DNA from: a virus
Reading direction: 5' to 3' (one strand)
IMG/VR virus record: IMGVR_UViG_3300047445_000457
Span: 6,227-70,226 of that record
Length of the DNA: 64,000 nucleotides
Part shown: positions 30,535-63,386 of the stretch, piece after piece
How positions within the stretch are numbered: position 1 is the stretch's first letter
How the letters are laid out: each line of letters opens with the position of its first letter
The notes under the pieces: model-generated
Database searches by the model: none
Seen by the model: the letters and a program-made list of their open reading frames with translations, nothing else
Told to the model about the DNA's origin: nothing
Translations under genes and position numbers: made by a program

Positions 30535-30850
30535 CCGGGTGCTCTTGGTTTGTGATCGGTTCCCCGAACAGGTCGGCTTGCCGGGTCGCCTCTGCGGCGT
30601 CCTGCTCTAGCTGGTAAAGCGACTTGGAGCGGTCGATGACGGTGTAGCGCACGACGCCCTTCTGGCGCAGGTCGCGCAGCACGCGGTCCGCAGACGCCGG
30701 CGCACAGCCTCCCTCCACCATGCCGTCGACATGGCGGCGCAGGTCGTCGGCGTGGAACGTGCGGCCTGCACGCTGGCGGCAATAGAGCAGGATCGCATCG
30801 GCAATCCGCGCCGACGTCGCTACCAGGTGGGCGGTATTCGGGTGGGTCAT
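30527..30850 (-). CDS. Small winged-helix-like protein
   Basis: FHADDLRRHV...APASADRVLRDLRQKG. Confidence 0.7.
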   Translation of the reverse strand: MTHPNTAHLVATSARIADAILLYCRQRAGRTFHADDLRRHVDGMVEGGCAPASADRVLRDLRQKGVVRYTVIDRSKSLYQLEQDAAEATRQADLFGEPITNQEHPAR

Positions 30851-34181: not shown

Positions 34182-34633
34182 GCGCTTGCCGGCGGCTGGG
34201 TCAGACCGAAGAAATGGGCCAGTACAGGGTCGGGGGCCGGAATGCACATGGACAGCGCGCCGGGATGGAATGAGCCGGTATCCAGGCGGTGGATCCTGTT
34301 CGGCTGCTTCGGCTTTTCCCGTAGTGCGGAGCCTGCCGCCACCGCGCGCAGATAGTCGTCCACGCGCTCCGTGTCGCGCACAAGGCGGAACATTGGATGG
34401 CCTGGCGAGCTGCGGGTGGCGTTCACGAAGCGATCGACCTCGATCACGCCATCCGCACGCAACATGAGGATGTACTTGTTGACGCCGGACTCGCTCATGT
34501 CGATGACATTGCGGAGGTCCGCGCGCAGCATCGGGCCGTTGCGAAGTGCGCCGATGATGGCCGTCACGTTCTGGTCGCGGCGCCTGGTGTTGGCATTCGA
34601 CCGGACGCGGCTGTTGGAAGGAACGAAGGACAT
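34178..34633 (-). CDS. Winged-helix DNA-binding protein
   Basis: PMLRADLRNVIDMSESGVNKYILMLRADGVI. Confidence 0.7.
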   Translation of the reverse strand: MSFVPSNSRVRSNANTRRRDQNVTAIIGALRNGPMLRADLRNVIDMSESGVNKYILMLRADGVIEVDRFVNATRSSPGHPMFRLVRDTERVDDYLRAVAAGSALREKPKQPNRIHRLDTGSFHPGALSMCIPAPDPVLAHFFGLTQPPASA

Positions 34634-43776: not shown

Positions 43777-44523
43777 TTACACCTGGGGCGGATCCACCTC
43801 ATTGCCCGCATCGGCGGCGAGCTGGCGGGCGTAGCGCAGCGACACCGCAGGCAGCAAGGCGTCACCGGCAGCAGCCCGTTCCAGCACCTTGGCGACCCAT
43901 GCGCGCTGGTCGCCTGGCTGGTCGCCGCTGCGCAGGATGCCCGAAGCGCCCAGCTCCTTCAGCATCCTGGCGGCGGCCTCACGCGAGGTGAACGCCTCGC
44001 CAGGTGCCGGCAGTGCGATATGCGCCTCGGGAATCGGCTCCCACGCGCCGCGCGCCATCTGCCGCTTGAGCGCCGCCAGCCAGCGCTCGCGCACCGACCC
44101 GTAAGCCTCCTGCATCAATTCCCGCCGCAACCCCGACGCCGCCCAATACACGGCCGGATGCGTCCACTCCCCCATTTCGCCCTTGCCGCGTGCCTCGAGG
44201 CCCGCCACCGCTTCCTGATACGCGGCGATCGGGTCGACCTCGGGCTGGCACAGCGCGAGGAATTCCCCCCAGGTGGGCGGGAATTTCAGCCGCTCGCACG
44301 CAGCCAGGCCTCGCCGCAACTGCCCGCGCGTGATCCCGTTCGCCCTGATCCGTTCCAACCAGGTGCGCTTCATGTTCTCGATACCGGTGTCGACCCCGTT
44401 CTCGACATGCCCGCTGCGGTAGGCGTCAAGGAACTTGTTGCCGAACATGCCGTGCAACTCCCCGAACAGCGAGTCGATCCCGGCGTCAGTTGAGGTCGAT
44501 GATGGTGGGGTCGTCACGCGCAT
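43777..44523 (-). CDS. Phage replication protein P-like
   Basis: LFGELHGMFGNKF...GLAAC...FPPTWGEFLALC; follows the O-like gene. Confidence 0.7.
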   Translation of the reverse strand: MRVTTPPSSTSTDAGIDSLFGELHGMFGNKFLDAYRSGHVENGVDTGIENMKRTWLERIRANGITRGQLRRGLAACERLKFPPTWGEFLALCQPEVDPIAAYQEAVAGLEARGKGEMGEWTHPAVYWAASGLRRELMQEAYGSVRERWLAALKRQMARGAWEPIPEAHIALPAPGEAFTSREAAARMLKELGASGILRSGDQPGDQRAWVAKVLERAAAGDALLPAVSLRYARQLAADAGNEVDPPQV

Positions 44524-45511
44524 GATTGCCTCCGAGTCCGATGGATGCCGCCGCCGCTTTCCGCGAAGCGTCGCGCACGGCTGCCGCATTGGGTGAAGCG
44601 CGCAGCGGTGGCCGCACGGCGCCGCTGACCGCGATCGCCTGGCTCTCCGCCGCCCAGCGCTTGAGGACGCCAATCACGTAGCCCACGCTGACCGCCTCGC
44701 CTGGCTTGCTGCGCTTGGCCTCTTCGCACGCGGCCCTGACAGTCTCCGGCGTGATGCCCTGCTCTGCCAGCACGATCAGGTGGGGCTGGCTCGGGTTCGC
44801 GTTGATGCCGTACGGACGCATTGCGGCTGACAACTGCGCGGCGCTCACGCTCCCCCCCACCCCGTCTGGCGATTGCGTTGCTGGCGGCGGTGGTGGGTCT
44901 CCTGCTGCTGCTGTTGCTATTGCTGTTCCTGTTGCTGTTCCTGATTCGAGCAAGTCTTTCGGCAAGCCTTTTCCCGAAGCGTTCGGGGAAGGCTTAGGGG
45001 AAGGCTTACGGGGAGTCGCCGCGGAAGGGTCCGGGGTAGGCTCTGGCGGGGGCTTCGGCATCAGCTTCCCTCCCGTCACCTCGTCAAAGGCGTCCACGAA
45101 GGCTGGGCCGATCTCGGCCAGCGCGGCGCGGATTTCCACCAGCGCACTGCGTTTCAGCTCGCACTCGGGCAGCAGGTCGATCTCGACGCGCCAGTGCTTG
45201 ACCACGTTGGGCGACTCGGGCTTGTTGTGCTTGATCGCATTCGGCAGCCAGATCAGCCTCGCGCGGAAATCGGCCTTCGCCATGCCGAGGGTTTCCAGTT
45301 CATGGAAGGCGCCCGTGAAAGCGTCCATCTCCCAATTCAGTTCCTCGGCCATCGCGGCGCGGCCGGCGCGGTACAGGCCTGGGATCGGTCCCGTGTGCGG
45401 CCCGGTCAAGAGGAAGAACCACAGTGCCTGCCCGGATGGCATGAGCGGGGTCAGCGCGCGGAAAGCGTCATCGGACCAGGTGCGTACTTCGATTTTTCGG
45501 TAGCGTGTCAT
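44486..45511 (-). CDS. Phage replication initiator (O-like)
   Basis: RYRKIEVRTWSD N-terminus, central repeats, YVIGVLKRW DnaD-like C-terminus. Confidence 0.75.
   Translation of the reverse strand: MTRYRKIEVRTWSDDAFRALTPLMPSGQALWFFLLTGPHTGPIPGLYRAGRAAMAEELNWEMDAFTGAFHELETLGMAKADFRARLIWLPNAIKHNKPESPNVVKHWRVEIDLLPECELKRSALVEIRAALAEIGPAFVDAFDEVTGGKLMPKPPPEPTPDPSAATPRKPSPKPSPNASGKGLPKDLLESGTATGTAIATAAAGDPPPPPATQSPDGVGGSVSAAQLSAAMRPYGINANPSQPHLIVLAEQGITPETVRAACEEAKRSKPGEAVSVGYVIGVLKRWAAESQAIAVSGAVRPPLRASPNAAAVRDASRKAAAASIGLGGNHARDDPTIIDLN
44900..45012. repeat. Putative lambdoid origin inside the O-like gene
   Basis: About 12-bp units (gcaagccttttc, gggaaggcttag, gggaaggcttac) next to a strand-skewed tgctgt-type tract. 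Confidence 0.55.
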
Positions 45512-45577
45512 TTCGGGCTCAGCGTCGATAGTCTCTCGGTGTGCGGGCAGATCCATGGCAGGTCCGCGCCGCTCTTG

Positions 45578-47078: not shown

Positions 47079-47486
47079 TCAGCCGCCCATGCTGTGACGG
47101 GTCACGCCGACGATTCCCTTGGGCAGGGTCGTGTCTTCGGGCGTGAGGCGCTGCACGTTCCCCGCGAACCCGGCGTGCCCCTGCTGCTGCGCCGGCTTCG
47201 TTTCCCGGTCCGGTTCGGCCTGGGTCGCATCCACCAGTTGCGCGGGCGCGGCGGGCCGCGCAGGCACCGGCAGCGCTTCGATCCTGCGCGGGATGAAGTC
47301 GGTGCCGACGTCGGTTTTGGTCGCCTTCGCGTAGTCGATCTCCACCTTGGCGGTGTTGATGATGGTCTGGCCGATGTCGGACACGGCTTTTGCCGTGGCA
47401 ACGTCGATCTTCCCATCCTTCAGCTTGGCCAGTGCCTCGAACAGGTGTTCGCGCAGTCCTTCGATATTGTTGGTTCCGGTGCTCAT
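47079..47486 (-). CDS. Hypothetical protein
   Basis: LREHLFEAL...AKAVSDIGQTIINTAKVEIDY. Confidence 0.75.
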   Translation of the reverse strand: MSTGTNNIEGLREHLFEALAKLKDGKIDVATAKAVSDIGQTIINTAKVEIDYAKATKTDVGTDFIPRRIEALPVPARPAAPAQLVDATQAEPDRETKPAQQQGHAGFAGNVQRLTPEDTTLPKGIVGVTRHSMGG

Positions 47487-48148
47487 CCGGTGCTCCTCTT
47501 GTTGATTTGACGAACCAGCGCACCACGCAATTGCGTCACTTGCACGATCTCTGGCGGGTAGTTGTGGATCGTATTGCGCTGCATGTTTTCGACCAGGCTG
47601 ATGCACTCAACCCGGTCGATCACGATGTCCTGCAGCTCGGTGGTCCTCATGCCGGGCTTGAAAACGACGATGTGTTTGTCCGGCACCGGGCCGTTAAGCT
47701 CGATCCAGACCAGTTCGTGTACGCTGCGCCAGCGCTTGTCGTTGCTGCCCCTGGCGTTGCTGATCTTGCGCTGCAGATAGCCATCGGGGGACAGACGGTA
47801 GCTGCCGATCGGCATGGTGTTGTGCGCGGCCTGGCCAGGCTTGAACCGTGTCGATGCACCCGCCTTGGCGAGCGCCTTCCCCATCGCGCTGGAACCTGGT
47901 CGGCCTTTCTGGAAGCGCGTGGCGGCGCCGCGCACGCCGTCCAGCCGGCCGGATGCGCTGCTTGCCATGAACTCGGCGGTTTTCTTCAGGTCCAGGCTGT
48001 GCGCCTTGGCGTACACCTTCTTCTTCGAGTGGCCAACAATAACCGCCACGTCCTCTGTTTTATAGCGCGGGTAAAGATCCCGCAGAATGCCGATCTGTTC
48101 ATCGGTCCAGACCGCACGCGGCCCCCGAATGCCTCTTGATTTTGTCAT
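47483..48148 (-). CDS. HNH endonuclease-family protein
   Basis: TRFKPGQ, DGYLQRK, HELVWIELNGPVP; partly degenerate HNH core. Confidence 0.8.
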   Translation of the reverse strand: MTKSRGIRGPRAVWTDEQIGILRDLYPRYKTEDVAVIVGHSKKKVYAKAHSLDLKKTAEFMASSASGRLDGVRGAATRFQKGRPGSSAMGKALAKAGASTRFKPGQAAHNTMPIGSYRLSPDGYLQRKISNARGSNDKRWRSVHELVWIELNGPVPDKHIVVFKPGMRTTELQDIVIDRVECISLVENMQRNTIHNYPPEIVQVTQLRGALVRQINKRSTG

Positions 48149-48156
48149 GACGTAAT

Positions 48157-48816
48157 TCAGCCGTTCGGGCCATGCTTGGCCTTCCTGTTGATCGCCCTGG
48201 TCAACAGCCCGCGCATTTGCATGACCCGCACCAGTTCCAAAGGGTAATTATGCAGCGTGATGCGGCTCAGCCACTCCTGGCGGCTGAGCAGTTCCAGATT
48301 TTCGGGGACGAGATTGAAACGGTCCTTGTCGCGGAAGCACAGCACATGCCCGAACGGGACCGGGCCGTTGGCGCGCTCCCATACGACGTGGTGTTCCGGC
48401 TTCCAGGCATCGGGCCAGGATCCTTCCCGTACCTTGACCCAACGATAACCGGCCTGCATCCTGATGCTGCCGACCGGCTTGTAATTAGCTGGACGCTGGC
48501 CTGGGCGGAACCACCCGGCGCTACTGTAGCGCAGCCCCTTGCGACCTTTGGACCATGGCGTACAACCCGGCAAGAACCGGGTGGCGGTGCCGCGCTGCCC
48601 GTCCAGGCGACCGGATGCCGGGCTGTCGAGATAGGCCTGTGTCTTTTGCACGCCGAGGCGTCGCGCTCGGGTGTACAGCGCTTCCACCGTGACGCCGAGG
48701 CTCGCCGCCAGCGTGGCGGTCAGTTCATGCGGATAGCGATCGCGGACCACCTGCTCCCGCTCGGAAGTCCAATCCTGGCGCGGCGTGGCCAGCTTGCGGG
48801 TTTCGTTTTTTGTCAT
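48157..48816 (-). CDS. HNH endonuclease-family protein (tandem paralog)
   Basis: HHVVWERANGPVP...FRDKDRFNLVPENLEL. Confidence 0.85.
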   Translation of the reverse strand: MTKNETRKLATPRQDWTSEREQVVRDRYPHELTATLAASLGVTVEALYTRARRLGVQKTQAYLDSPASGRLDGQRGTATRFLPGCTPWSKGRKGLRYSSAGWFRPGQRPANYKPVGSIRMQAGYRWVKVREGSWPDAWKPEHHVVWERANGPVPFGHVLCFRDKDRFNLVPENLELLSRQEWLSRITLHNYPLELVRVMQMRGLLTRAINRKAKHGPNG

Positions 48817-49181
48817 GACGTAATCTTGCGGGACTGTCCGAAGAGGGCAGCTACCAGGTCCATGCGTTTCACCGGGTCTGGGCGCAGGGCACTGGACGCC
48901 CTCCGCGGCAGAATGACCGGGCGGTGGGACGGCAGAGGCTCAAGGCCGGGTGCCACCTGGTAGGTATTCGGCAGCGAGCCGTGAACGCCGATTTGGCTGG
49001 GCACGGTCCTGATGATGCGTTTCATCCTGCGCAAGTCCAGCGTGTAGCCGTTCAGGGTGGTGTGCTTGATGCATAGGGCGACTCCGATCTGGCGTGCAGT
49101 GCAGTGCGGGTGGTCAGCGATGTATTGCTCGACACGCTGAAGCGCAACGATCCGGCCCACCGTAATGACATTCTTGCGCAT
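48813..49181 (-). CDS. Winged-helix protein, first gene of the leftward early operon
   Basis: YIADHPHCTARQIGVAL...YTLDL. Confidence 0.65.
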   Translation of the reverse strand: MRKNVITVGRIVALQRVEQYIADHPHCTARQIGVALCIKHTTLNGYTLDLRRMKRIIRTVPSQIGVHGSLPNTYQVAPGLEPLPSHRPVILPRRASSALRPDPVKRMDLVAALFGQSRKITS

Positions 49182-49392
49182 GACAAACTCACCAATCAGT
49201 GTGCGTGAAGAAAACGGGATTGCGATAGCCGGGCAACCAGTCGATGTAAAACAAGTCCTCGATGGTCATCCATATTCCCAATCCTCACATATGTGTAGAT
49301 ACTTTGCAATACTTGCCCACAAATCACAGAAAAATTCTTTTCCGCGGTCTATAATCCAGCGCACGATGCTTGATGTTTTTCTGGGAAATCTT

Positions 49393-49821
49393 ATGATGAC
49401 TAAATCTACTGAACAACGCTTAGCAGCCCGAAAGGCGTTGGCAGAGCGGTGTACATGGGCACGTAAGCGACTAAGAATTTCACTTATGGAAGTAGCTCGA
49501 CGTGCCGGCGTAGCGGAGAGCGTCATCGGCAACGCCGAAGGCGGGCGAAACGAGACGATTCGCAGAATTACCGAGGTCGCACGCGCGCTAGAGGTGAACC
49601 CTTACTGGCTGGCGACCGGGGAGGGTGCCTACGATGATCCAGTGGAGCAGGATGCGCTGCCGCTACCTGAACAGTTCAGGGACCTTCCCAGGAACGAAAT
49701 CGTCATGGCCATGGAGTGGTTATCACTCTGGCGTGGGGCCGACCCACTGACACGCGGCCTGATTGAGAGCACCTTTGCCGTGGCCGGCCGAAGGGACCAG
49801 CCAGCGCAACGCTACGCATAG
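49393..49821 (+). CDS. CI-like XRE HTH repressor without peptidase domain
   Basis: SLMEVARRAGVAESVIGNAEGG...VARALEVNPYWLATGEG; divergent from the early operon. Confidence 0.85.
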   Translation: MMTKSTEQRLAARKALAERCTWARKRLRISLMEVARRAGVAESVIGNAEGGRNETIRRITEVARALEVNPYWLATGEGAYDDPVEQDALPLPEQFRDLPRNEIVMAMEWLSLWRGADPLTRGLIESTFAVAGRRDQPAQRYA

Positions 49822-50476: not shown

Positions 50477-50962
50477 ATGCAAACGACCTCCCCTGATGAC
50501 GGAGCGGCGCCACCGGTGCGCCCCGATCCAGCCGAACTCGCTTACCTGCGCGGCGTTCTCGAGGACGAAACCGAGCTTGCCCACCTGCTGCGCTGGGGTA
50601 ACGTCGAGGCGCCAACGGTCCTGACGCCGAATATGTGGCTGTGGGGTACGCGCGCCGGCGAGCGCGGCCTGACGGCGCTGCTGGCCACCACCCCGCTACC
50701 GCGCTGGCGTCGCAAATGGGGCTGCGCCGGCGAGCTGGTGGCCAAGTGCGGCCTCATCATCTTGCAAGGCTCCACATCGGTGACTGTGATGGCCCGCAGC
50801 GGCGCCGCAATCGTCGCCAACTTCTCCGACTTCCCAAGTGTTGACCAGGCGATTTTCTACGCCATGTGCAAGGCCTCGATCGCCTACCTGAAAGCGGCGC
50901 GCAGCGCGCAGGCGGCGTCCACGGCCTACCTGTCCCAGTACATCCGGGGGGCAGAACTGTGA
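50477..50962 (+). CDS. Hypothetical protein
   Basis: 161 aa, coupled to the next gene. Confidence 0.65.
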   Translation: MQTTSPDDGAAPPVRPDPAELAYLRGVLEDETELAHLLRWGNVEAPTVLTPNMWLWGTRAGERGLTALLATTPLPRWRRKWGCAGELVAKCGLIILQGSTSVTVMARSGAAIVANFSDFPSVDQAIFYAMCKASIAYLKAARSAQAASTAYLSQYIRGAEL

Positions 50963-51456
50963 GCGAGCAAAAACGCACCCACTGGAAGGAGCTGGCGGAC
51001 CCGCGCTACATCGGCGCCTACGCCCTGCCGAACGGCGATGATCTGACGGTGACGATCACGCGCGTGCAGCGCGAGGAAGTGACGGTCGACGGCGGCCGCA
51101 AGGAGGAACACACCGTTGTCTACTTGCAGGATCAGAAGCCGTTAATCTTGAACGCGACCAACGGCAAGACGATCGCGCGCCTATACGGGCCGTACATCGA
51201 GGAGTGGGTTAACAAGCGGATCACGCTGTTCGGCAGCACCGCCAGGCTCGGCAACGACTTGGTGGAATGCCTGCGGATCCGCCCATCGGTGCCGGCCGCT
51301 TCAAAAAAGGGCATCAGCGCGGATCGCCTGGCGCGCGCGATCGAGCAGATCAAGGCCGGCACCTACACCCTGGCGAAGCTGCGCGCCGGCTTCGCGCTCA
51401 CCGAGGCGCAGGAGCGCCAGGTGACTGAACTCGAGGGAGTGCCGGCCGATGAATAA
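50959..51456 (+). CDS. Recombination-module protein (probable ssDNA binding/annealing)
   Basis: THWK...YIGAYAL...KPLILNATN...IEEW; adjacent to the exonuclease. Confidence 0.65.
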   Translation: MSEQKRTHWKELADPRYIGAYALPNGDDLTVTITRVQREEVTVDGGRKEEHTVVYLQDQKPLILNATNGKTIARLYGPYIEEWVNKRITLFGSTARLGNDLVECLRIRPSVPAASKKGISADRLARAIEQIKAGTYTLAKLRAGFALTEAQERQVTELEGVPADE

Positions 51457-52189
51457 CTTCCATTTTCGCTGCTCATCGCTGGGCCTCATCATGACCGATC
51501 CGCTGTCGATCGAAGAACAGCACGTTACCGACGAAATCGCCGCGATCCAACGGAAGAAGACCCGTACCGACGAGGAAAAGGCACTGCTGCAGGCAGCGAA
51601 AGACAAAAGCCTGTCCGCCGGCGCCAAGACGTTCCTGGAAACGCTGGCCAAGGAATACGTGTACGGCTACCACGAGGTCGTTTCCACGAAATACATGGAA
51701 AAAGGGCTGATCGTGGAAGACCAGGCGATCCAGCTCTATAACTCGGTCTATTTCACCGACTACGTGAAAAACACGGTCCGGCTGACGGACGAGCACATCA
51801 CCGGCGAATGCGACATCATCGTGCCAGGCGTGAAGGGTATCGACATCAAATCCTCCTGGTCGAAACCCACGTTCCCGGCCACTGCCGAAGTCGGGGCAGA
51901 CAAACTCTATGAGTGGCAGTGCCGCGGCTATATGAAGCTGTGGAACGTCCCCGAGTGGGAGGTGGCCTACTGCCTGGTCAACACGCCGGACGAGCTGATC
52001 CGGTATGAGCAGCCCGATCTGCACTACATGGACGATATTGACGAGGCGCTGCGGGTGACAGTCGTGCGCTACCAGCGCGACCTGGAACTGGAGGCCAAGA
52101 TCGCCACCAAGGTGGAAGCGGCCCGCCGCTACCTGGACGAAGCGGTGGCCAGGATCTACCGGCAGCACAACATGCCAGCAGCGGCGTAG
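51449..52189 (+). CDS. Lambda-exonuclease/YqaJ-like nuclease
   Basis: RCSS, MEKG..VE, TGECD, DIKSS and YEWQCRGYM motifs. Confidence 0.85.
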   Translation: MNNFHFRCSSLGLIMTDPLSIEEQHVTDEIAAIQRKKTRTDEEKALLQAAKDKSLSAGAKTFLETLAKEYVYGYHEVVSTKYMEKGLIVEDQAIQLYNSVYFTDYVKNTVRLTDEHITGECDIIVPGVKGIDIKSSWSKPTFPATAEVGADKLYEWQCRGYMKLWNVPEWEVAYCLVNTPDELIRYEQPDLHYMDDIDEALRVTVVRYQRDLELEAKIATKVEAARRYLDEAVARIYRQHNMPAAA

Positions 52190-52200
52190 GGCGTCGCCCT

Positions 52201-52308
52201 GCGGAAGCGTGGCTTCCGGGGGGGCGGAAATTCATTCCCAAATTTTCGCACTGCTTTTCCAGTTTTCGGAAAAGCGTTTCCGCAGGGGCGGAAATGGCGC
52301 TTCCGGTG
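52201..52308. repeat. CGGAA-Nn-TTCCG palindrome array downstream of rep
   Basis: cggaagcgtggcttccg, cggaaaagcgtttccg, cggaaatggcgcttccg. Confidence 0.75.
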
Positions 52309-52950
52309 TCAGGTCCGCTTGCGCAGGGGTGCCGAGAAGCGTTCGATCTGCTTGACCGCCTCCTCCAGCTCGGAGTCGGCGGTCTTGGCGGGCAGGTCTG
52401 GTTCCATGCCGTCGATATGGGGCTGGCTCGGCGGATCCAGGCCCGGCCCGGTCGGCAACTGGCGTTCGTTGGAAAAGAGCAGCGGGATCTTGCGCAGGTC
52501 CGTGCGCTCGATGGTCATCCTGTCCTGGTCATCCCGGTCCGCGATCACCTGGGCCGAGAAGATCGAGAGGTGCATCTTGTCCCGCGATTCGCCCCATGAG
52601 ACCTGATCGTTGACTACATAGGCCATGACGGTGCCGGGACCATTCAGCTTCACGGTGCTGATCCATCGGTCTGCCACCAGCACCTGTACTGCCGTGCGGA
52701 TTGTCCTGTCGGTGACGCCCATCATCTTGGCCAGCATTTTCTGGCCGACGACGACGGCGTTCCGCGGCCCCATGTGGGCCACCAGTAGGTGCAGCAGTGC
52801 GGCGGCGCGCGGTGCCTTCACCGACAGCAGCGCCCATGCTTCGTGCGCCTCGCGCTCAGTCATCACGAAGGTGGCAAAAGACGTGCCGGCCGGGGTGCCA
52901 AGTCTGGCAGGAACCAGCTTGTCGGATGGATTATCGGGAGATGTTTGCAT
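52309..52950 (-). CDS. rep: pBBR1-type plasmid replication initiator
   Basis: TEREAHEAWA, NAVVV, KLNGPGTV.AYVVND and QLPTGPG..PPSQP.I.GMEPDLPA match pBBR1 Rep as I recall it. Confidence 0.85.
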   Translation of the reverse strand: MQTSPDNPSDKLVPARLGTPAGTSFATFVMTEREAHEAWALLSVKAPRAAALLHLLVAHMGPRNAVVVGQKMLAKMMGVTDRTIRTAVQVLVADRWISTVKLNGPGTVMAYVVNDQVSWGESRDKMHLSIFSAQVIADRDDQDRMTIERTDLRKIPLLFSNERQLPTGPGLDPPSQPHIDGMEPDLPAKTADSELEEAVKQIERFSAPLRKRT

Positions 52951-53034
52951 CTTTTCGGAAAGGGGGCACACAGAACTTGCATGAGTATGCCGAGAATTGG
53001 CGTTAACTGCAATCAGGGATTGTTGCAATGGCCA

Positions 53035-53135
53035 GGTGCGGAAGCCGGGCTTCCGGGGGTGCGGAAATAGCTTGTTTCCGAGGGTGAAGAAACAAGCTGT
53101 TTCCGGGGGTGCGGAAGCCCTGCTTCCTGGGGGTG
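53035..53135. repeat. CGGAA-Nn-TTCCG palindrome array upstream of rep
   Basis: Four units at 23-25 bp spacing separated by GGGGT(G)-like spacers. Confidence 0.8.
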
Positions 53136-53441
53136 GGGTGTAAGTGATTGATTTATCGAAAGTTCTTTTGCGGCTCTCTTGATCTCGGGCCGCGTGTCGC
53201 GCCGACTTCTCGATTCTTTGCAAGCTTTTAACTAACGCGCGCTGCGCGCTTGTTGCCGCACCGGTTTGCGCAGCAAACCGGCGCGGTGGGTGGAAGCGGT
53301 GGCCAGTATCTATCGGCAGAACAACATGATGCGCGTGGCATGACTCGGCGATTGTCCCGGCGGGTAGTTTCCGGCTATCATCGAATGGTTCACCGCCAAG
53401 TTAGCTACAGGATGATAAAGCAATCCACAAAGGAGACGCTT

Positions 53442-54503
53442 ATGCAGCGCACCGCCGCTGCATCCATGCGCAAGTACACGCCGGTCCAGTTAGCGTTCTG
53501 GCCGGACGAGCGCAGGGCGATCGCCAACGAACTGGCGCGCTGTGCGCTGTTCCGCTGCGGCTCCACGCGCAAGCCGCGCCAGCAATTCGACAACCATAGC
53601 CTGTTTGTGCTCGGCAGCGGCAAAGTCACCTATACCGGCGAGGAACTGCGCAGCCTCGACGAGGATTTGTTCATGGCATTGGCCCATGCGGCGCGCCGGA
53701 TGTCGGTCGACTGCCTGACAGTCAAACTGAGCAACGCCCAAATCTGCAAGCTAACCGGACGGCACCAGTCGCAGGTTTATTACAACGAGATTTTCAGGTC
53801 GATCCAGCGGATGCGGGGCGGGACCATCACCGTGTTTTCCGCGCGCCTGACGAAGGCGCTGGCCTGCGAGAAGGCACGGGAGGAGGGCGCTGCACCGGAA
53901 GTGCTGTACCGCCTGTTCGCGGAACTGGCAGAGTTCGAGCGCCGCGAAGCGCTGAAACTGCTGACGCCGAACGACAAGATAACCGGCGTCATGATGTCCC
54001 TGATCGAAGGCGACCCGGTGTTCACCAACGTAGGCACGATAGTCGACAATATCCCGCAAGGCAATCTGCAATGGGAAATCATGCTCAACAAGAAACTGGT
54101 CATGCTTTTTGCAGAGGCCTACCTGACGCATATTGATTTTGAAGCGCGCAAGGAGCTGTCTCCGGGTGCGCGCCGCCTGCAGTCTTATTTTTCCAGCCAT
54201 CGCAATCCAAACGACGTACTCGTCAGCTCCCTGGCGCAGTACGTCGGCCTTGAACTGAGTTCACGCGAAGAAGTGCGGACGATACAGCGCTACCTGGATG
54301 AGCTGGTGAAGGTCGGGATCCTGGAAACCGGCGTGATCGTGCCGGCGGCCCGGAAGGGCAGCAAGCTGGTACAAGTAACACGCCCTACTACTAAAAACGA
54401 CACACAAGAGGGACAAAACGACCCACCAGCAAAGTCGGCGGAACTAAAAACCACACACAACGAGCTAAAATCGAACACGCTTTTACTTAAAATGACACCG
54501 TGA
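53442..54503 (+). CDS. trfA: TrfA-family (IncP-like) replication initiator
   Basis: AAGGAG SD; QLAFWP clamp-type motif, RAIANELARCALF, VTYTGEELRSLDED, YFSSHRNP. Confidence 0.85.
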   Translation: MQRTAAASMRKYTPVQLAFWPDERRAIANELARCALFRCGSTRKPRQQFDNHSLFVLGSGKVTYTGEELRSLDEDLFMALAHAARRMSVDCLTVKLSNAQICKLTGRHQSQVYYNEIFRSIQRMRGGTITVFSARLTKALACEKAREEGAAPEVLYRLFAELAEFERREALKLLTPNDKITGVMMSLIEGDPVFTNVGTIVDNIPQGNLQWEIMLNKKLVMLFAEAYLTHIDFEARKELSPGARRLQSYFSSHRNPNDVLVSSLAQYVGLELSSREEVRTIQRYLDELVKVGILETGVIVPAARKGSKLVQVTRPTTKNDTQEGQNDPPAKSAELKTTHNELKSNTLLLKMTP

Positions 54504-54519
54504 TTGCTAAAAACGACAC
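54391..54519 (+). repeat. Iteron array, consensus CTAAAAACGACAC
   Basis: Units at 54391, about 54412, 54444, 54465, 54486, 54507; inverted copy at 54779-54791. Confidence 0.85.
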
Positions 54520-55009
54520 CAGGCACATCTGGAAATAAACTTTACAATCAAAGAGTTACGTAATCCATCCACAGCGTTAACCGCTTTTAACCACTTTAAC
54601 CACTTAACGCCAACAAACAATTCTAGGATTTATCACAATTTCCTAACTAACAAGTAAATGGGTGAATTGTTAGAAAGATGGATGCCACAGCGAAACTAAT
54701 ACGCGAAAAGTTGTCAATAAGACGCTACTAACAACAACTTTCAGTGGCAAATTGCAGGTAACGCAAGCTGTAAAGCGTGGGTCATTTTTAGCGCCAAAAT
54801 TCTAGGTTCGCGGTTAAAACAATTCTACAATTCGCAGCCCTCACATTCGTGAGCCATCCAAGCGGCTCTACTGCCAACGACTGGCAACTTCCTTCCTCCG
54901 AGCACGCTATTCCGTAACCGAATTTCTCATCGCCCGTCCACGCTGTTTAAGAGGAGTGCGTTCTAAAAAAAAAGGGATTTTGTTAAAAAAATTTTGTTCA
55001 AACATAACT
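54520..55009. other. AT-rich non-coding region, putative oriV unwinding element
   Basis: Sharp GC drop; TTAACC(A/G)CT repeats at about 54577-54605; follows the iterons. Confidence 0.7.
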
Positions 55010-55037
55010 ATTTGACATAATGTAAGTTATGCGCGGT
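55010..55037 (-). other. XerC/XerD dif-like recombination site
   Basis: Minus strand ACCGCGCATAA-CTTACA-TTATGTCAAAT versus E. coli dif GGTGCGCATAA-TGTATA-TTATGTTAAAT. Confidence 0.85.
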
Positions 55038-55173
55038 CTCTGAACCTTGCTTTTCGGAAGCATGTTGTACAAATGTTTTTTTAACTTGTGCTATTGCTAA
55101 ATCGCAAAAGTGACTGCTAGAATCACATTTGTGGGGATGAAGACCAACCGAATCAATATCACAGGAAACGCAG

Positions 55174-55581
55174 ATGACTAGCAATGTCGCGCGCCGTGGG
55201 GAGATCAACGAGTTGCGCAAGCAGCTTAAGGTCGATCTTTTCAACCTTGAAAAGAAATTTAAGGAAGAGTCCGTCGCGCTGGAGAAGAAGTGTCAGGCAG
55301 ACATTTCCGCTCTCGAGCGTGAAATCAAGGAATGCGAAGCTCAGGAAGTGCGGGCGGCGCGAGAACAGATTCAACAAATCATCGCGGCTACCGGGCTTGA
55401 CCCTGCCGCCATCTTTGCAGGCCTGGCCGGGGCACGCGGCACCCAGGAAGCCCGCACCACCCGCAAACCAATGAGACCATCCACGGTCCAGCATACCGGC
55501 CCGAAAGGCCAAATCTGGAACGGGCGTGGTCGCACACCACAGTGGTTCAAGGAACGCCAAGTCGCTTCCAATGGCCACTAA
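55174..55581 (+). CDS. H-NS family protein
   Basis: Coiled-coil N-terminus; GQIWNGRGRTPQW motif. Confidence 0.85.
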   Translation: MTSNVARRGEINELRKQLKVDLFNLEKKFKEESVALEKKCQADISALEREIKECEAQEVRAAREQIQQIIAATGLDPAAIFAGLAGARGTQEARTTRKPMRPSTVQHTGPKGQIWNGRGRTPQWFKERQVASNGH

Positions 55582-55611
55582 CACCATTACCCAGATCGAC
55601 CTGGTGCAGGC

Positions 55612-55899
55612 GTGACGAATCCTGTCCATTACATGGATGCGACTCCCTGCCCCGTGTGCAGGGCCGAGCTGTCAGCGGTATCGAGCGCGAACGTGGCCGA
55701 GAACATCGTCGTGCCGCAGCCTGGTGATGTCACGGTCTGCCTGCACTGCGCCGCCGCGCTGCGCTTTAACGCCACCATGCTTCCGCAGCGGCTGACCGCC
55801 TACGATTTCTCGGACTTCGACCCTGAAACCCTGTGGGACCTTACCCGACTGCTCACGGCGGTGCGGATTGCCAAGCGCACTGGCCGGAAGCAGGCATGA
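55612..55899 (+). CDS. Zn-finger hypothetical protein
   Basis: CPVC...PQPGDVTVCLHC. Confidence 0.65.
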   Translation: MTNPVHYMDATPCPVCRAELSAVSSANVAENIVVPQPGDVTVCLHCAAALRFNATMLPQRLTAYDFSDFDPETLWDLTRLLTAVRIAKRTGRKQA

Positions 55900-56504
55900 G
55901 CGATCTCGCCAAAATCCGCCAGCGTGAAACCGACCCGGCCGTGCTTGAGCATGCGCAGCGCGTTTCAGACAAGATCGTTGCCCGCGTGGATCAACAGCGC
56001 GTCCAGTTGTTCGGGGCAATGGCCAAGCAGATGCCACACCTGGCCGGCAAAGTCGACATGCTGCGCCGAATGTCGGGCGAGCTCGCAACGGCGGCGCGCG
56101 ACCTGGTGCCGTGCTCCCGCGGCTGCTCCCACTGCTGCCACATGGCCACCATGCTGAGCCAGGAAGAGGCTGAAGTCATTGCGGCCGAGACTGGTGCGCC
56201 ACTCGCCACGCCGTCAGCCTGGTTCACTGGCGCCGACGAGCGGAACCGCTACGATGGCATACCGTGCCCCTTCCTCAAAGACAGCAAGTGCAGCATCTAC
56301 GAGCATCGCCCGGTGGCCTGCCGCCTGCATGTCCACCTGGACCGTGACAATACCCTCTGCCAGATCATTCCCGGTGAACCCATCCAGGTCCCGCGCCTCG
56401 ACACGCTGCGTTTCGACCTGAATTACGTCAGCGCCTTCGGTGATCCGCTGAACGCAAAACTGGCGGACATCCGCGAATTCTTCCCGAATGGATTGGCAAA
56501 GTGA
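55896..56504 (+). CDS. YkgJ-family CxxCxxCC cysteine-cluster protein
   Basis: CSRGCSHCC, CPFL...CSIYEHRPVACR. Confidence 0.88.
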   Translation: MSDLAKIRQRETDPAVLEHAQRVSDKIVARVDQQRVQLFGAMAKQMPHLAGKVDMLRRMSGELATAARDLVPCSRGCSHCCHMATMLSQEEAEVIAAETGAPLATPSAWFTGADERNRYDGIPCPFLKDSKCSIYEHRPVACRLHVHLDRDNTLCQIIPGEPIQVPRLDTLRFDLNYVSAFGDPLNAKLADIREFFPNGLAK

Positions 56505-56789: not shown

Positions 56790-58085
56790 ATGGCGCAACA
56801 CCTTGGATTACAACCTGTTCGCTGGGACGACGAAGAATGGGAAGATTTGGCCACGCTGCTGCATGAAGACAATCCACACCAGCACTACATGGATTCGTCC
56901 GACCTGGGCGGCCTATGCCTGCGACACTTGAACAACGCCGCCGCGCAAATGCGGCGCCCGCGTCATATGGTCGCCCTGACGGATCCGCGCAAGAACCTGC
57001 TGAAGGCATTCGCCCGCCTGCGCGCCAGCCGTCCAGGGGCTGCTTCCGGCACCGAGACGCGCACCCGCCGCGCCCCGGCGCCCTGCGAGCCAGCCAGCCC
57101 CCTCAAGCTCGACGGCAATGGTCGCCCGCTGTCGATCCCGACTGAGCAACGAGCAAAACCAGCTGAATCGACCAGTCCGTTCGCGGCCGTGGCGTGGGAT
57201 CGCGGCGAATGGCTGGCGATCGCCACCGAGATCGACCGCATGTATTCGGGGGCAAACTACCCGAACCGCGAGCACCTGAGCGGCCTGACTTCGGAAGACG
57301 TGGCATTCGCGCAGCGCATCCTGCCGCTCGAGCGCCAGATCCGCCATGTCAAGGTAGCCAGCTTCTCGACCCTGGCGCCGGCGCTGAAAGAGGCTTTCGA
57401 GGACCTGAAACGCCAGCGCCGCAGTGCTGAACTGGAGCAGGGTGTCGTGGCCGAGGCCGAACGCCACGCCAAGAACGCGCTGGACAAGGCCGCGGCGGCG
57501 CGCCAGGTACGCCCCGCGCCCGCGCCCGCGCCCGCGCCTGCCGTGGCGCCTGAGCCGGCACCCACGCCGATCACTGCCGGCCCGCGCGAAGCCGTGCTAA
57601 CGTCGGCTGTCAGTACCGTGCTGGGGATGTTGGCCGATTACCTGCGCCCGATGATTGCAGAGCTGATCGAGCAGGCCTTGAATGCGCCCCCGGCAGCGGT
57701 GCCGCCTGCGCCCGAGACCGCGCAAGCCGCCATGCCGACGCCGACGCCGGCGACTGTGGCGAAGCCAAGAGGGCGACGCATCCGAATCGGTATCGTCGGC
57801 AACCGCAACAGCTATGCCAGCGATCTTCAGCGCGACTTCCCGACTGTCGATTTCACCTGTATCGACAGCCTGAAGTGCGTCGATTCCATAAAGAACTGCG
57901 AGCGTGTGCTGGTACTGACGAAGTTCATCAGCCACAAGCTGGATGGCCAGGTCAAGCGCTCGATCGAGCCGACTCGGTACACGCCCGTGCATGGCTGCCT
58001 GACCGACATCCGGCGGGTTATAACCGGGCTGCTGAACGGCGAGCGCACCGAAGCCAGCCAGCCAGTGGTCGCACTCGCGGCCTGA
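56790..58085 (+). CDS. Multi-domain hypothetical protein with C-terminal DUF2325-like domain
   Basis: Two WDxxEWxx(L/I)A repeats; RIGIVG...VLVLTKFISH. Confidence 0.7.
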   Translation: MAQHLGLQPVRWDDEEWEDLATLLHEDNPHQHYMDSSDLGGLCLRHLNNAAAQMRRPRHMVALTDPRKNLLKAFARLRASRPGAASGTETRTRRAPAPCEPASPLKLDGNGRPLSIPTEQRAKPAESTSPFAAVAWDRGEWLAIATEIDRMYSGANYPNREHLSGLTSEDVAFAQRILPLERQIRHVKVASFSTLAPALKEAFEDLKRQRRSAELEQGVVAEAERHAKNALDKAAAARQVRPAPAPAPAPAVAPEPAPTPITAGPREAVLTSAVSTVLGMLADYLRPMIAELIEQALNAPPAAVPPAPETAQAAMPTPTPATVAKPRGRRIRIGIVGNRNSYASDLQRDFPTVDFTCIDSLKCVDSIKNCERVLVLTKFISHKLDGQVKRSIEPTRYTPVHGCLTDIRRVITGLLNGERTEASQPVVALAA

Positions 58086-59513: not shown

Positions 59514-59770
59514 GCACCCGAAGGTCCGACCCATTGACCGCGCCGGACGTCGTGCTCAATCTGTGGACCGTGTACGAGCGGCCGAGCGACTACACGCAGG
59601 GGTTTGTCGCGCGCCTGCACCACGCCTACGCGAACGGCACCCACGGACCGACCTCGCTCGCATGCTACGGCCCGAGCCTGGAATCGGTGCGCGCGCAACT
59701 CCCCGGCGGCCTGTACAACCTGGGCCGACAACCCGATGACGATCCCTGTATCGTGGAGACTTGGATATGA
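59510..59770 (+). CDS. Hypothetical phage protein
   Basis: WTVYERPSDY...FVAR...DDPCIVETWI. Confidence 0.7.
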   Translation: MSTRRSDPLTAPDVVLNLWTVYERPSDYTQGFVARLHHAYANGTHGPTSLACYGPSLESVRAQLPGGLYNLGRQPDDDPCIVETWI

Positions 59771-60345
59771 CCGATCTGGCAAGGACTGAAACCGACTTGA
59801 CCGTGCCGGTGCGCACGCACTACCCGGCGCTGTTCCAGCCGACCGCCAACGGCTTCCTCGTCCGCTTCCGCGACATTCCCGAGGCGCTCACGCAGGGTGA
59901 CGACGAGATCGACGCAATGGGCATGGCGGAAGACGCGCTCGCAACCGCGCTCGAGTTCTACTTTGAAACGGATCGCTTGCCGCCGCTGCCGTCCGCGCTG
60001 CGATCAGGGGAGCGCATGGTCCGGCTGCCGCTGGAGGCCGACTTGCTGCTGCACCAGCGCATCCTGGACGGCGTGCGCAAAGCGTCCGGCCCGCTGAATC
60101 TCTGGTGGGCCATGATCGAGGCCGATGAATCCATGGCCGGCGAGGACCCGAGCGTAACCCTACCGGACGGCAAGACGATTCTGAACTTCATGGGATCCGG
60201 TGCGTCGACCACCGTGACGGCGGGACACCTGCGCGCCTTCATGGATGCCGCCGGCGATGCGTCCAGGCTGCTGGCCACGAATGAGGATCGTGCTTGGGGC
60301 GAGCGCCTGCTCAAGGACCTGATCGAGGATGCGCAGAATGGATAA
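59767..60345 (+). CDS. hicB: HicB-like antitoxin domain fused to an unknown C-terminus
   Basis: YPALF...GFLVRFRDIPEALTQGD...AEDAL...PLPS. Confidence 0.8.
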   Translation: MTDLARTETDLTVPVRTHYPALFQPTANGFLVRFRDIPEALTQGDDEIDAMGMAEDALATALEFYFETDRLPPLPSALRSGERMVRLPLEADLLLHQRILDGVRKASGPLNLWWAMIEADESMAGEDPSVTLPDGKTILNFMGSGASTTVTAGHLRAFMDAAGDASRLLATNEDRAWGERLLKDLIEDAQNG

Positions 60346-61263: not shown

Positions 61264-61536
61264 ATGCCGCACGCTAAGGTGTTCGCCCTGCTCGGCGGCC
61301 GGGTGGCACTGTTGTGCGGCACCTGCGGCACGATGACCACGCTCACAAGCGGCGCGCCGCTTGTCTGCGCGCACTGCGCTGTAGCGGTCAGGCCAGCACC
61401 TGGCTATCCGCTGGTCACGGAGCCGCAGCCGCCAACCAAGAAAGCCCAGGACGGGCGCGCAGGCAAGGAGAAATTACGTCATGACGGAAAACGAAAGCGA
61501 CGAAGGCGCAAGCCTGTTATGCCAGTGGTGCGATGA
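61264..61536 (+). CDS. Zn-ribbon protein with basic tail
   Basis: CGTC...CAHC. Confidence 0.5.
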   Translation: MPHAKVFALLGGRVALLCGTCGTMTTLTSGAPLVCAHCAVAVRPAPGYPLVTEPQPPTKKAQDGRAGKEKLRHDGKRKRRRRKPVMPVVR

Positions 61537-61780
61537 ACCGGTGACGGAGCTGGAACTTCGGCTGGGAGGCGCGGAGGCTACTCTTTGGGGGCAGGTGACG
61601 CACATCGAATGCGGACTGCGTAGCGTCGTTGGCTCGGTGGGCCACCAGGCGCACCGCTGTTCCTGCCACGGGGGCACGGAGGAAGACCCGCCCGGCATGA
61701 CCAGGCGGGAAGCGGCGCGGGCCGCGATGACGTATTTCCAGTGGCGGCACCCGCCGGCCCGCTCTCACCAACCCGAGTAA
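61481..61780 (+). CDS. Cys/His-rich hypothetical protein
   Basis: AAGGAG SD; CQWC...HIEC...GSVGHQAHRCSC. Confidence 0.65.
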   Translation: MTENESDEGASLLCQWCDEPVTELELRLGGAEATLWGQVTHIECGLRSVVGSVGHQAHRCSCHGGTEEDPPGMTRREAARAAMTYFQWRHPPARSHQPE

Positions 61781-62505: not shown

Positions 62506-63000
62506 TCAGAACGGGATGTCCTGATCCATATCCGAGAAGTTCGCGGCGGGCTGCGGGCGAGCCGCCGGTGCCGGCGCCTGGCGCGCTCCTGGGCGCGGTG
62601 CGGGGGTGGTCATCGCGGTCTGGTAGCTGTCGTCCGCGCCGTAGCTGTCGTTACCTCCTGGACCCGTGCGACCGCCCAGCATCTGCATGTTCTCGGCAAT
62701 GATGTCGGTAGCGTAGCGCTCGATGCCGTCCTTGTCGGTGTACTTGCGGGTCTGCAGGCGGCCTTCGACGTAGACCGACGAGCCCTTTTTGAGGTACTGG
62801 CCGACGATCTCCGCCAGGCGGCCGAAGAAGGATATCCGGTGCCACTCGGTCAGTTCTTTCTGTTCGCCGGTGTTGCGGTCCTTCGACTTGTACGAGGTCG
62901 CCACCGCGATGTTGGCGATCGCGTCGCCGCTCGGCATGTGGCGCACTTCCGGGTCGCGGCCGAGATTGCCGACGATGATGACCTTGTTGACTGATGCCAT
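62506..63000 (-). CDS. ssb: Single-stranded DNA-binding protein
   Basis: [18 protein letters not shown]...TEWHR...DIPF. Confidence 0.97.
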
Positions 63001-63074
63001 GATCTGACTCCTACGTAAAGTGTCCTGGAGCCGCCAGGCCGGATTCCTTGTCTTTGCAACCTAGCAATTATAGG

Positions 63075-63386
63075 TCACTTGCTGTTGCCGGCTTCACTCC
63101 GATCTGCTGTCTTACCGGGCTTCCTCGGGCGCTTCGGTGCCTGCACCAGGGCCGCTTCGAGCAGGAGCAGGCGCCAGGCGGCATAGTCGATCGCCGCATG
63201 GGACCGGGCCGTGGCTGGAGCCAGCCAGCGACGAACGGCGCGGCCGTCCTTCACACCCGTCAGGCCAGCGATCCGGTTGCCGGTGTAGCCAAGCATGGCA
63301 TACACGGCGCGGACGTCATCGGGCGACGGTTGCCGAAAGTTCGGGTCCGTGTACAGAAGCAGGGTATCGGGATGGGGCGCGGTCAT
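63075..63386 (-). CDS. korC: KorC-like HTH repressor
   Basis: QPSPDDVRAV...GYTG...RAVRRW...IDYAAWRLL resembles RK2 KorC as I recall it. Confidence 0.65.
   Translation of the reverse strand: MTAPHPDTLLLYTDPNFRQPSPDDVRAVYAMLGYTGNRIAGLTGVKDGRAVRRWLAPATARSHAAIDYAAWRLLLLEAALVQAPKRPRKPGKTADRSEAGNSK

Follow-up and report, generated by a model that had tools for sequence, protein, structure and literature searches.

Replicon region of the early operon

The 64,000-nucleotide stretch analyzed here (the window) comprises bases 6227–70226 of the IMG/VR record IMGVR_UViG_3300047445_000457 (G000, 70,226 bases), and the phage it represents was sampled in a rhizosphere metagenome (soil). The plus-strand early operon of this phage starts with a cI-like gene, continues with recombination genes (for a protein of 196 amino acids (aa) and an exonuclease), and ends with a replicon region. 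Here, the genes of two plasmid-type initiators, trfA and a pBBR1-type rep, run divergently, each with its own repeat array. TrfA, an RK2-like origin, a dif-type site, and an H-NS-like gene form a putative plasmid-maintenance block, which ends the operon where an integration module might be. The features of this block are:

53442–54503, plus strand: trfA, TrfA-family iteron-binding initiator, 353 aa (Pfam TrfA, 62.7 bits)
54391–54524, plus strand: oriV iteron array, six direct repeats with a spacing of 21, 32, 21, 21, and 21
54565–54605, plus strand: DnaA-box-like 9-mer (7/9 positions), then three TTAACCNCT repeats
54520–55160, no strand: AT-rich region (GC 0.473), presumed unwinding element and hns promoter, containing an inverted iteron at 54777–54791
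55010–55034, minus strand: dif-like XerC/XerD-type site, exact match to GCGCATAA-N6-TTATGTNAAAT, internal and intact
55174–55581, plus strand: H-NS-like protein, 135 aa, with a C-terminal RGR motif (phrog_10171 at 9.4e-12)

The trfA open reading frame (ORF) spans 53250–54503(+), with a likely start at 53442 behind AAAGGAG, and the database copy of the protein has the same start. The product scored well above the cut-off of Pfam TrfA (PF07042; 62.7 versus 22 bits, E 3.7e-17). No NCBIfam model matched it, and a PDB sequence search yielded nothing relevant. All 63 TrfA homologues found at E ≤ 1e-10 carried PF07042. By tblastn, TrfA matched 315 plasmid records, with a TrfA annotation on every match listed. 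The best plasmid TrfA among these listed matches was that of a Herbaspirillum huttiense conjugative plasmid (43% identity), and most others were about 26–29% identical. An AlphaFold (AF2) model built from 18 homologues (pLDDT 75, pTM 0.72) was submitted to Foldseek, which returned RctB domains 2–3 (E 1.5e-9), RepE54, a Rep-DNA complex, the TrfA-DNA entry 9a0w (E 2.8e-3), and Pi. The TrfA of the window is predicted to have the double winged-helix initiator fold.

The direct repeats of the origin are of the CTAAAAACGACAC type and start at 54391, 54412, 54444, 54465, 54486, and 54507. Three of them, together with the inverted copy at 54777–54791, lie within 3 mismatches of the 15-mer iteron. This 15-mer was matched 6 times in the window against 0.61 expected, a count that was reached in 0 of 100 shuffles. 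Of note, the first iterons (54391–54503) are located inside the 3′ end of trfA, so that the TrfA proteins of this clade end in repeated QNDPP/KNDT peptides encoded by their own binding sites. The GC content was 0.473 in the bin 54001–55000 and 0.56–0.74 in every other 1-kb bin of the window. A promoter and terminator scan gave results no better than shuffles.

The dif-type pattern had one exact match in the window, where 0.02 matches would be expected even at up to 3 mismatches. The H-NS-like gene scored below both curated cut-offs, with 23.9 versus 25.6 bits for Pfam Histone_HNS and 29.6 versus 211 for NCBIfam H-NS (5.3e-7, residues 53–127). An hns homologue also follows the rep cassette of another phage contig (L118, record G014), which is described below.

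A preliminary description of this stretch had named the pBBR1-type Rep, the TrfA-type initiator, their divergent arrangement with separate repeat arrays, the AT-rich region with a dif-like site, and recombination genes upstream of them, and all of these were recovered in our analysis. It had also named an hns gene; the gene is in its place, but its family scores stay below the cut-offs given above.

TrfA and its origin in related phages

Between 43389 and 63559, the window aligned collinearly with record G001 (locus L005), at ~77% identity. G001 keeps trfA (85% aa identity), the iterons, the inverted iteron, and the dif-like site within an AT-rich spacer that has otherwise diverged. A profile of 18 TrfA homologues retrieved 16 viral loci. 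Eight of these, from seven records of roughly 100 kb (G002–G006, G008, and G009), have 5–11 early-region proteins in common with the window, syntenic around trfA. The proteins shared with the window include the exonuclease, the single-strand DNA-binding protein (SSB), four small proteins, a 431-aa protein, and a CxxCxxCC protein, and the TrfA of these seven kin is 35–41% identical to that of the window. The kin are phages, as seen in G006, whose virion genes encode portal, head-closure, and tail proteins.

The kin iteron arrays have the same core (AACGACACAC) and the same spacing as that of the window. In L076 and L066, the two loci checked, 6–8 iterons directly follow trfA at 21/32/21/21, and L066 also contains a pair of perfect DnaA boxes. 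Exact copies of the 11-mer iteron core were found in 9 of the 120 loci compared, all of them from G000, G001–G004, or G006, and in none of the bacterial contigs in this set that carry only TrfA. The exact dif-type pattern was present once in each of the records G001–G006. That the iterons with their spacing and the dif-like site have been kept while TrfA itself varies (only 35–85% identity) makes selection on a working origin likely. These comparisons indicate that TrfA/oriV is an ancestral, lineage-wide module.

Partition genes accompany this module in most of the kin: ParA was found in 7 of the 8 records and ParB likewise in 7 of 8, ~5 kb upstream of trfA, the exception being G001, which has neither. 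No integrase was found in the seven ~100-kb TrfA kin records, and PF00589 was found in 0 of 12 related records (G000–G006, G008, G009, and G012–G014). In G006 (117.9 kb), the first 20 kb re-aligned to 98.6–117.8 kb (98,641–117,848) at 70–85% identity. The re-aligning ends point to a wrap-around unit of ~98.6 kb with no host flank. Since they are similar rather than identical, the assembly seems to have passed between two strain variants on its way round a genome that is circular or permuted.

The bacterial contigs with the closest TrfA (45–63% identity) were assigned to Massilia, Herbaspirillum, and Noviherbaspirillum. They share only TrfA with the window, in two cases also SSB, and five loci add one weak match each. 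With so little in common beyond TrfA, these contigs give no information on the phage. To judge from the nearest TrfA homologues, its host is probably one of the Oxalobacteraceae, such as Massilia.

Another TrfA (65% identical to that of the window) is encoded at L063 in IMGVR_UViG_3300028585_000002 (G007; 111,592 bp, terminal repeats), together with a ParA-type gene and a tyrosine integrase. This record is complete and of the circular type, and none of its other proteins is common with the window. G007 might represent a further type of phage-plasmid, or else a plasmid that was catalogued among the viruses.

A strain-specific pBBR1-type rep cassette

The second initiator gene, rep, lies between the exonuclease gene and trfA in a unit with the following features:

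52175–53328, no strand: pBBR1-type replicon cassette, 1,154 bp; along the rep (minus) strand it consists of the hairpin, iterons, rep, iterons, and one repeat copy
52309–52950, minus strand: rep, pBBR1-family replication initiator, 213 aa (58% identity to pBBR1 Rep, E 9e-76)
53037–53141, no strand: upstream iteron array of rep, with TTCCGGGGGTGCGGAA at 53051 and 53101, a degenerate copy at 53076, and 25-bp phasing
52200–52302, no strand: iteron-type repeats downstream of rep (52214–52229 and 52278–52293) with an A+T-rich spacer between them
53256–53286, no strand: hairpin with a 14-bp stem at the outer cassette edge (inverted repeat I16, 93% complementary), conserved in L118
52139–52174, no strand: left copy of a 36-nt direct repeat (repeat family D4), inside the exonuclease 3′ end
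53293–53328, no strand: right copy of the 36-nt direct repeat, left over from the 3′ end of the ancestral exonuclease gene

The rep ORF spans 52309–53223(−), and the ATG at 52950 is its most likely start. Rep aligned end to end with the Rep of the Bordetella plasmid pBBR1 (NC_025015), with 108 of 185 residues identical. By blastn, the pBBR1 record itself was retrieved at 68%, along with five other plasmids (four of 2.7–3 kb and one of 66 kb). In Pfam, Rep matched HTH_36 only, below threshold (20.8 bits, cut-off 25), and no NCBIfam model matched it. At E ≤ 1e-10, 926 Rep homologues were found, mostly carried by contigs of 1–6 kb, as expected for small plasmids. The motif TTCCG-N6-CGGAA is present in four exact copies (at 52214, 52278, 53051, and 53101) and one degenerate copy (at 53076). 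The three copies upstream of rep are spaced by 25 bp and lie 100–175 bp from the rep start. With up to 1 mismatch, the motif was found 8 times in the window against 2.62 expected, and 8 matches were reached in 1 of 100 shuffles.

The cassette is bounded by the two 36-nt copies, which are 92% identical and 1154 bp apart. It is missing in G001, where the alignment passes from 52174 directly to 53308 and the exonuclease gene is directly followed by trfA. Of the two metagenome runs used (X1 and X2), X2 is a second rhizosphere metagenome from another study, and it contains a contig ~97% identical to the window in which the cassette is also missing. The joint in this contig is 52166 to 53321, with exactly 1154 bp skipped. 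In a three-way alignment, the right 36-nt copy and the sequence beyond it were the ancestral continuation, and the left copy was the end of the working exonuclease gene. The pBBR1-type unit is thus a strain-specific insertion of recent origin and not an ancestral part of the phage. The preliminary description had presented rep and trfA as a dual replicon. Both initiators are indeed present, but they do not form a symmetric pair, as TrfA/oriV is found across the lineage and rep belongs to a cassette of this strain.

A homologous module with a 66% identical Rep is present in the unrelated phage contig L118. It shares the iteron 16-mer without a mismatch, and likewise the hairpin and the outer limits. 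In L118, the module stands between parA-like and hns-like genes, and no long direct repeats were found to flank it. The rep cassette is probably a functional, accessory second replicon, and its source was probably another phage-plasmid or a small plasmid.

A more far-reaching idea, which we regard as speculative and rather doubtful, is that the 1,154-bp unit is a mobile mini-replicon that moves from one phage genome to another. Recombination through short phage-derived homology (here 36 nt of the exonuclease gene) would bring it in, and it could loop out as a 1,154-bp circle, hitchhike in capsids, and give its carrier a second compatible origin. With 3 mismatches in 36 positions, the two 36-nt copies differ by more than the ~3% divergence between the strains with and without the cassette, which suggests that the incoming copy came from another phage. 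The soil phage family would then consist of phage-plasmids that rely on either TrfA/ParAB/Xer or pBBR1-Rep/ParA. The depth data of X1 and X2 consist of one figure per contig, which cannot reveal a free 1,154-bp circle.

Extent of the record and structural relatives

IMG/VR classes G000 as a provirus, with a CheckV completeness of 85%. Its left end interrupts a giant minus-strand ORF (>5,164 aa), which is open at the first base of the record, and its right end is the start codon of a minus-strand gene. The TrfA and Rep of the window are both encoded on one 96,289-bp parent contig, of which G000 covers 70,226 bp, so that ~26 kb extends to the right of the window and beyond G000. Searches for this unseen flank returned one distant match only (a metagenome scan with the protein that the preliminary description had called KorC-like) or no match (one genome-contig scan). 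A viral scan with the last protein of the window gave only three 23-residue matches, which were of no use. Logan contigs stop inside ssb and extend just 1.1–1.4 kb beyond the window end. A closed circle of ~97 kb was considered in view of two contigs of nearly equal length (96,289 and 98,107 bp), but this similarity is now taken as no more than suggestive; the 98,107-bp contig may come from another assembly.

The giant ORF occupies 3–9269(−) of the window, continues into bases 1–6226 of G000, and comes after the tail and lysis genes. Its complete counterparts have 5,883 aa in G012 and 5,932 aa in G013, and that of G006 has 7,229 aa. In the giant protein of the window, the first 3,089 aa had no Pfam match.

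G012 and G013 aligned collinearly with the half of the window that holds the virion genes. When viral contigs were scanned with the C-terminal 500 aa of the giant protein, 65 loci were identified, and the 12 closer structural records were examined for integrase and TrfA, with G001 as a positive control. A tyrosine integrase was present in 9 of the 12, and TrfA in none. Four of these 12 records are complete with terminal repeats (71–80 kb). The presence of integrases in most structural kin that lack TrfA points to a plasmid-maintenance module that stands in for integration. The same virion chassis thus seems to be combined with an integrase in some phages and with a TrfA module in others. Both integrase and TrfA are lacking in G022, a complete structural relative (79,799 bp, terminal repeats), which has homologues of the CxxCxxCC protein and of the product of 61481–61780.

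The ends of the provirus records were compared with the phage DNA across them. G012 and G001 were 99.9–100% identical over a 23.9-kb overlap, and G012 is cut at a gene edge (equivalent to position 46024 of the window) where the phage continues in G001. Similarly, G015 is cut just beside its cI homologue. Such cuts at gene edges inside continuous phage DNA are not att sites, which makes the provirus boundaries unreliable here. Apart from G012, no viral record with the virion genes of the G001 phage was found.

Maintenance of the prophage

On balance, we consider it probable that the window represents most of a temperate, lambdoid-organized, podovirus-like phage that is kept as a low-copy plasmid by means of TrfA/oriV, with host XerCD resolving dimers at the dif-like site and the O/P proteins driving lytic growth. 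During lysogeny, the CI-like repressor would silence the O/P-driven lytic replicon. TrfA bound to the iterons would fire oriV about once per cell cycle with the help of DnaA, DnaB, and Pol III of the host. With its dimers resolved by XerCD, the prophage would be inherited as a low-copy circular plasmid. In this strain only, a pBBR1-type replicon has recombined into the 3′ end of the exonuclease gene. The gene identities, origin anatomy, conservation, and cassette polymorphism were observed; that the prophage is extrachromosomal, that both origins are active, and that the Xer site is used are inferences. The window itself encodes virion, packaging, lysis (endolysin-type domain), and repressor proteins of a phage and two plasmid initiators (TrfA and the pBBR1-type Rep), and a partition system is present in 7 of the 8 TrfA-sharing kin. 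The absence of an integrase, reported for the window in the preliminary description, held in a wider search of the 70-kb G000, in which no tyrosine integrase, serine recombinase, rve transposase, or protelomerase was found. No tRNA gene was found in the window.

Several observations weigh against plasmid maintenance. Neither ParA (PF01656, PF13614) nor ParB was found in G000, and G001 likewise yielded no ParA or ParB; in G012 and G013, ParA (PF13614) was not found and ParB was not searched. The DnaA box of the window matches at 7/9 positions only, with no match within 1 mismatch of TTATCCACA there. The wrap-around contig G006 could equally stem from circularly permuted virion DNA. The contig depth in X1 and X2, given as one figure per contig, was flat and is uninformative on copy number. 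In addition, IMG/VR classes five records of the group (G000, G001, G009, G012, and G013) as proviruses, and this label still cannot be dismissed, given the unseen stretch. Host DNA or an integrase may be present in the ~26 kb beyond the right end of G000. G012 and G001 together represent about 78.8 kb of one phage, to which homology with G013 adds 2.1 kb, and this already reaches the 68–83 kb computed from the CheckV percentages. The remainder of the 96–98 kb contigs need not be phage and could be host DNA. Finally, in three complete structural kin (G017, G019, and G020) an integrase is located ~6–13 kb past the giant gene, and no record of the window lineage covers the stretch that would link the end of this gene to the right end of the window.

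Alternatively, the phage may be an ordinary integrated prophage that has captured plasmid replicons, with integrase and att sites in the unseen part and with TrfA/oriV and the rep cassette as cargo, as remnants, or as elements used only after excision. This explanation accounts for the provirus labels, the missing parAB of G000 and G001, and the position of the integrase in the structural kin, yet we judge it rather unlikely. The structural kin with integrases have no TrfA, and the TrfA-bearing kin have parAB and no integrase. Captured cargo would not readily explain why the iterons, their spacing, and the dif-like site were kept across such divergent TrfA proteins, and the provirus boundaries are gene edges inside continuous phage DNA. 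The proposal of a phage-plasmid lineage in the preliminary description is favored by the comparative evidence (conserved TrfA, iterons, and dif-like site, parAB in the kin, no integrase), although the lack of parAB in the window lineage and the provirus label speak against it.

Less probable still is that TrfA/oriV is a vegetative or early theta origin of the phage that has no role in lysogenic maintenance, so that no plasmid state is needed. The location of trfA in the early operon beside recombination and ssb genes would fit such a role. By tblastn, moreover, no homologue of the O/P pair was found in the ~100-kb kin, where TrfA may be the sole initiator. The window, however, has a separate O/P-type module in its late-early operon and a CI-like repressor, and the parAB genes and dif-type site that accompany trfA in the kin serve stable inheritance rather than a lytic burst. 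The dif-like site could also be an attP, through which the phage would integrate at host dif by means of host XerCD (the IMEX route). A perfect, conserved XerC/XerD-type site, the lack of an integrase in any TrfA-bearing relative, and the provirus labels would all be accommodated by this route, which would explain a provirus without an integrase. It is nevertheless very improbable, since the site is internal and intact in G000–G006 with conserved phage genes on both sides, and no assembled molecule is integrated through it. TrfA and parAB would also be superfluous under such a mode of inheritance.

Phage genes around the replicons

Further genes of the early and lambdoid regions are:

43777–44673, minus strand: lambda P-like helicase loader (Pfam Phage_lambda_P, 30.6 bits versus a cut-off of 26)
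44486–45556, minus strand: O-like/DnaD-like protein (phrog_1701 at 1.2e-14)
49165–49821, plus strand: CI-like repressor, first gene of the rightward early operon (phrog_8 at 1.6e-11, phrog_2328 at 8.9e-10, Pfam HTH_3 weak)
50866–51456, plus strand: 196-aa protein (phrog_21613), conserved in kin
51449–52189, plus strand: exonuclease (phrog_5715 at 6.9e-60), conserved in kin
55833–56504, plus strand: CxxCxxCC protein (Pfam CxxCxxCC, 3.8e-9), which travels with trfA in all kin
56790–58085, plus strand: 431-aa protein, which travels with trfA in all kin (Atlas: a weak, sub-threshold DUF2325 lead)
62506–63000, minus strand: SSB (Pfam SSB, 1e-37), 89–93% identical in kin

The minus strand encodes a terminase, portal, capsid, internal virion protein, a glucosaminidase-domain protein, and two large methyltransferases. 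It also carries the lambdoid set, namely the O-like/DnaD-like, lambda P-like, YbcO, DUF1367, and DUF1064 proteins. The O/P-like pair had been proposed as a third initiator module, and both of its genes were identified; the pair is presumed to be the lytic replicon. The capsid protein matched Pfam Phage_capsid_4, and the best 12 of 46 matching records, as listed, were headed by vB_Pun_Y3 and Rollin (40%). None of these 12 is N4-like, so that the N4-gp56-type capsid of the preliminary description was not upheld. The nearest cultivated portal matches were 28–33% identical (Rollin, vB_Pun_Y3, and HMO-2011-type). The supposed KorC-like gene at 63075 matched phrog_8351 only and no Pfam or NCBIfam family. 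Most small early genes had no Pfam match. The product of 59761–60345 had a weak HicB-like match (E 0.0084), from which no toxin-antitoxin claim is made.

Two adjacent DNA methyltransferase genes (438 and 695 aa) are located at 30847–34247(−) between the capsid and portal regions, and the second also matches a primase PHROG. At 47483–48816(−), two tandem genes for HNH-endonuclease-domain proteins (221 and 219 aa) lie beside the cro-side gene of the early region. In G013 (locus L111), positions 1–1444 downstream of the giant gene encode an OmpA-like beta-barrel outer-membrane protein and a small glucosaminidase/SLT-like protein, which have the look of moron-type cargo at the record edge.

The summed contig depth rose from ~12 to 260–425 over ssb (62677–63343) in both runs, and Logan contigs break there. 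Near-identical ssb genes occur in many of the sampled organisms, and SSB is 89–93% identical even where other phage proteins are 35–55% identical. In L011 (IMGVR_UViG_3300046615_000539, 5.7 kb), the exonuclease gene (55%) is directly followed by ssb (93%) on the same strand at 3772–5475, and the ~100-kb kin have the same order. The ssb of the window, by contrast, is inverted and 10 kb away, which indicates that the early region was rearranged.

Comparison with known systems

Phage-plasmids are known mostly from the enterobacterial models P1, N15, and SSU5. If the proposed plasmid maintenance is correct, a group from soil and rhizosphere would be added, whose plasmid side combines a TrfA-type iteron origin with a dimer-resolution site for host Xer, and with ParAB in the kin. 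One virion chassis would alternate between integrase and TrfA. The presence or absence of a broad-host-range-type mini-replicon as a phage cassette would be a concrete route of module exchange between small plasmid replicons and phages. Two features are unusual, namely the presence of an Xer-type site in a tailed phage and the polymorphism of a 1.15-kb replicon cassette among phages that are otherwise near-identical. A caution for databases also follows, as provirus calls can cut through such elements.

Among 50,697 GenBank phage records, none was matched by the TrfA query. For Rep, matches were confined to Burkholderia phage FLC5 (34.5%), which accounts for two of these records. Within the portions of the literature covered, including parts of PMC12142739, PMC7326022, and PMC7969092, we found no description of a phage-plasmid with TrfA, pBBR1 Rep, or XerC/dif. 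The term IncP is absent from the main text of PMC7969092, whose supplementary replicase tables may list TrfA-type cases. Among cultivated phages, the nearest capsid and portal matches were Pseudomonas phage Rollin, Pseudoalteromonas phage vB_Pun_Y3, and HMO-2011-type podoviruses.

The rep cassette resembles pBBR1 in the length class of Rep (213 versus 224 aa in pBBR1) and in having three palindrome-ended 16–17-mers upstream of rep, which in pBBR1 are spaced by 25/54 bp and lie 67–162 bp upstream. The iterons differ, however, with CGCAA-N7-TTGCG in pBBR1 and TTCCG-N6-CGGAA in the window, and the window motif is not found in pBBR1. Moreover, the unit of the window has no mob, has extra iterons downstream of rep, and measures 1,154 bp within a phage, in contrast to a 2.7-kb plasmid.

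The RK2 origin consists of phased direct iterons, a lone inverted copy, DnaA boxes, and an AT-rich stretch. The window resembles RK2/RP4 (IncP-1) in its TrfA-family initiator and in its phased direct iterons with a lone inverted copy, DnaA-box region, and AT-rich stretch. It differs in that its origin is directly downstream of trfA, with iterons in the trfA 3′ end, and in that its DnaA box is degenerate. No ParA/ParB family (incC/korB) was found in G000, and the KorC-like protein has no family; transfer genes were not searched by family. As no IncC/KorB, kor, or tra/trb backbone was found, the replicon is better described as TrfA-type than as IncP. Of the earlier designation "IncP TrfA-type", the TrfA family and the common origin layout can therefore be retained, but not the IncP plasmid backbone.

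The dif-like site shares the 11-6-11 organization of XerC/XerD-type sites on mobile elements such as cer of ColE1, psi of pSC101, and those of CTX-phi-type IMEX. Filamentous phages use the IMEX route of XerCD integration at host dif. The site of the window, in contrast, lies on a tailed phage genome and not at a prophage-host junction, and the IMEX route is not supported.

In the sections consulted of Pfeifer et al. 2021 (PMC7969092), phage-plasmids are defined by replicase and partition genes, with no integrase required, and the P1 subgroups are described as swapping two replicase families at one position. The exchange of TrfA and pBBR1-Rep seen here parallels this replicase swap of P1. Like P1, N15, and SSU5, the phage of the window combines phage structural, lysis, and repressor genes with a plasmid replicase, and its kin have partition genes and lack an integrase. 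It differs from these three in its replicase types and in its giant-protein podovirus virion module, and in dimer resolution host XerCD would take the place of a phage recombinase like Cre.

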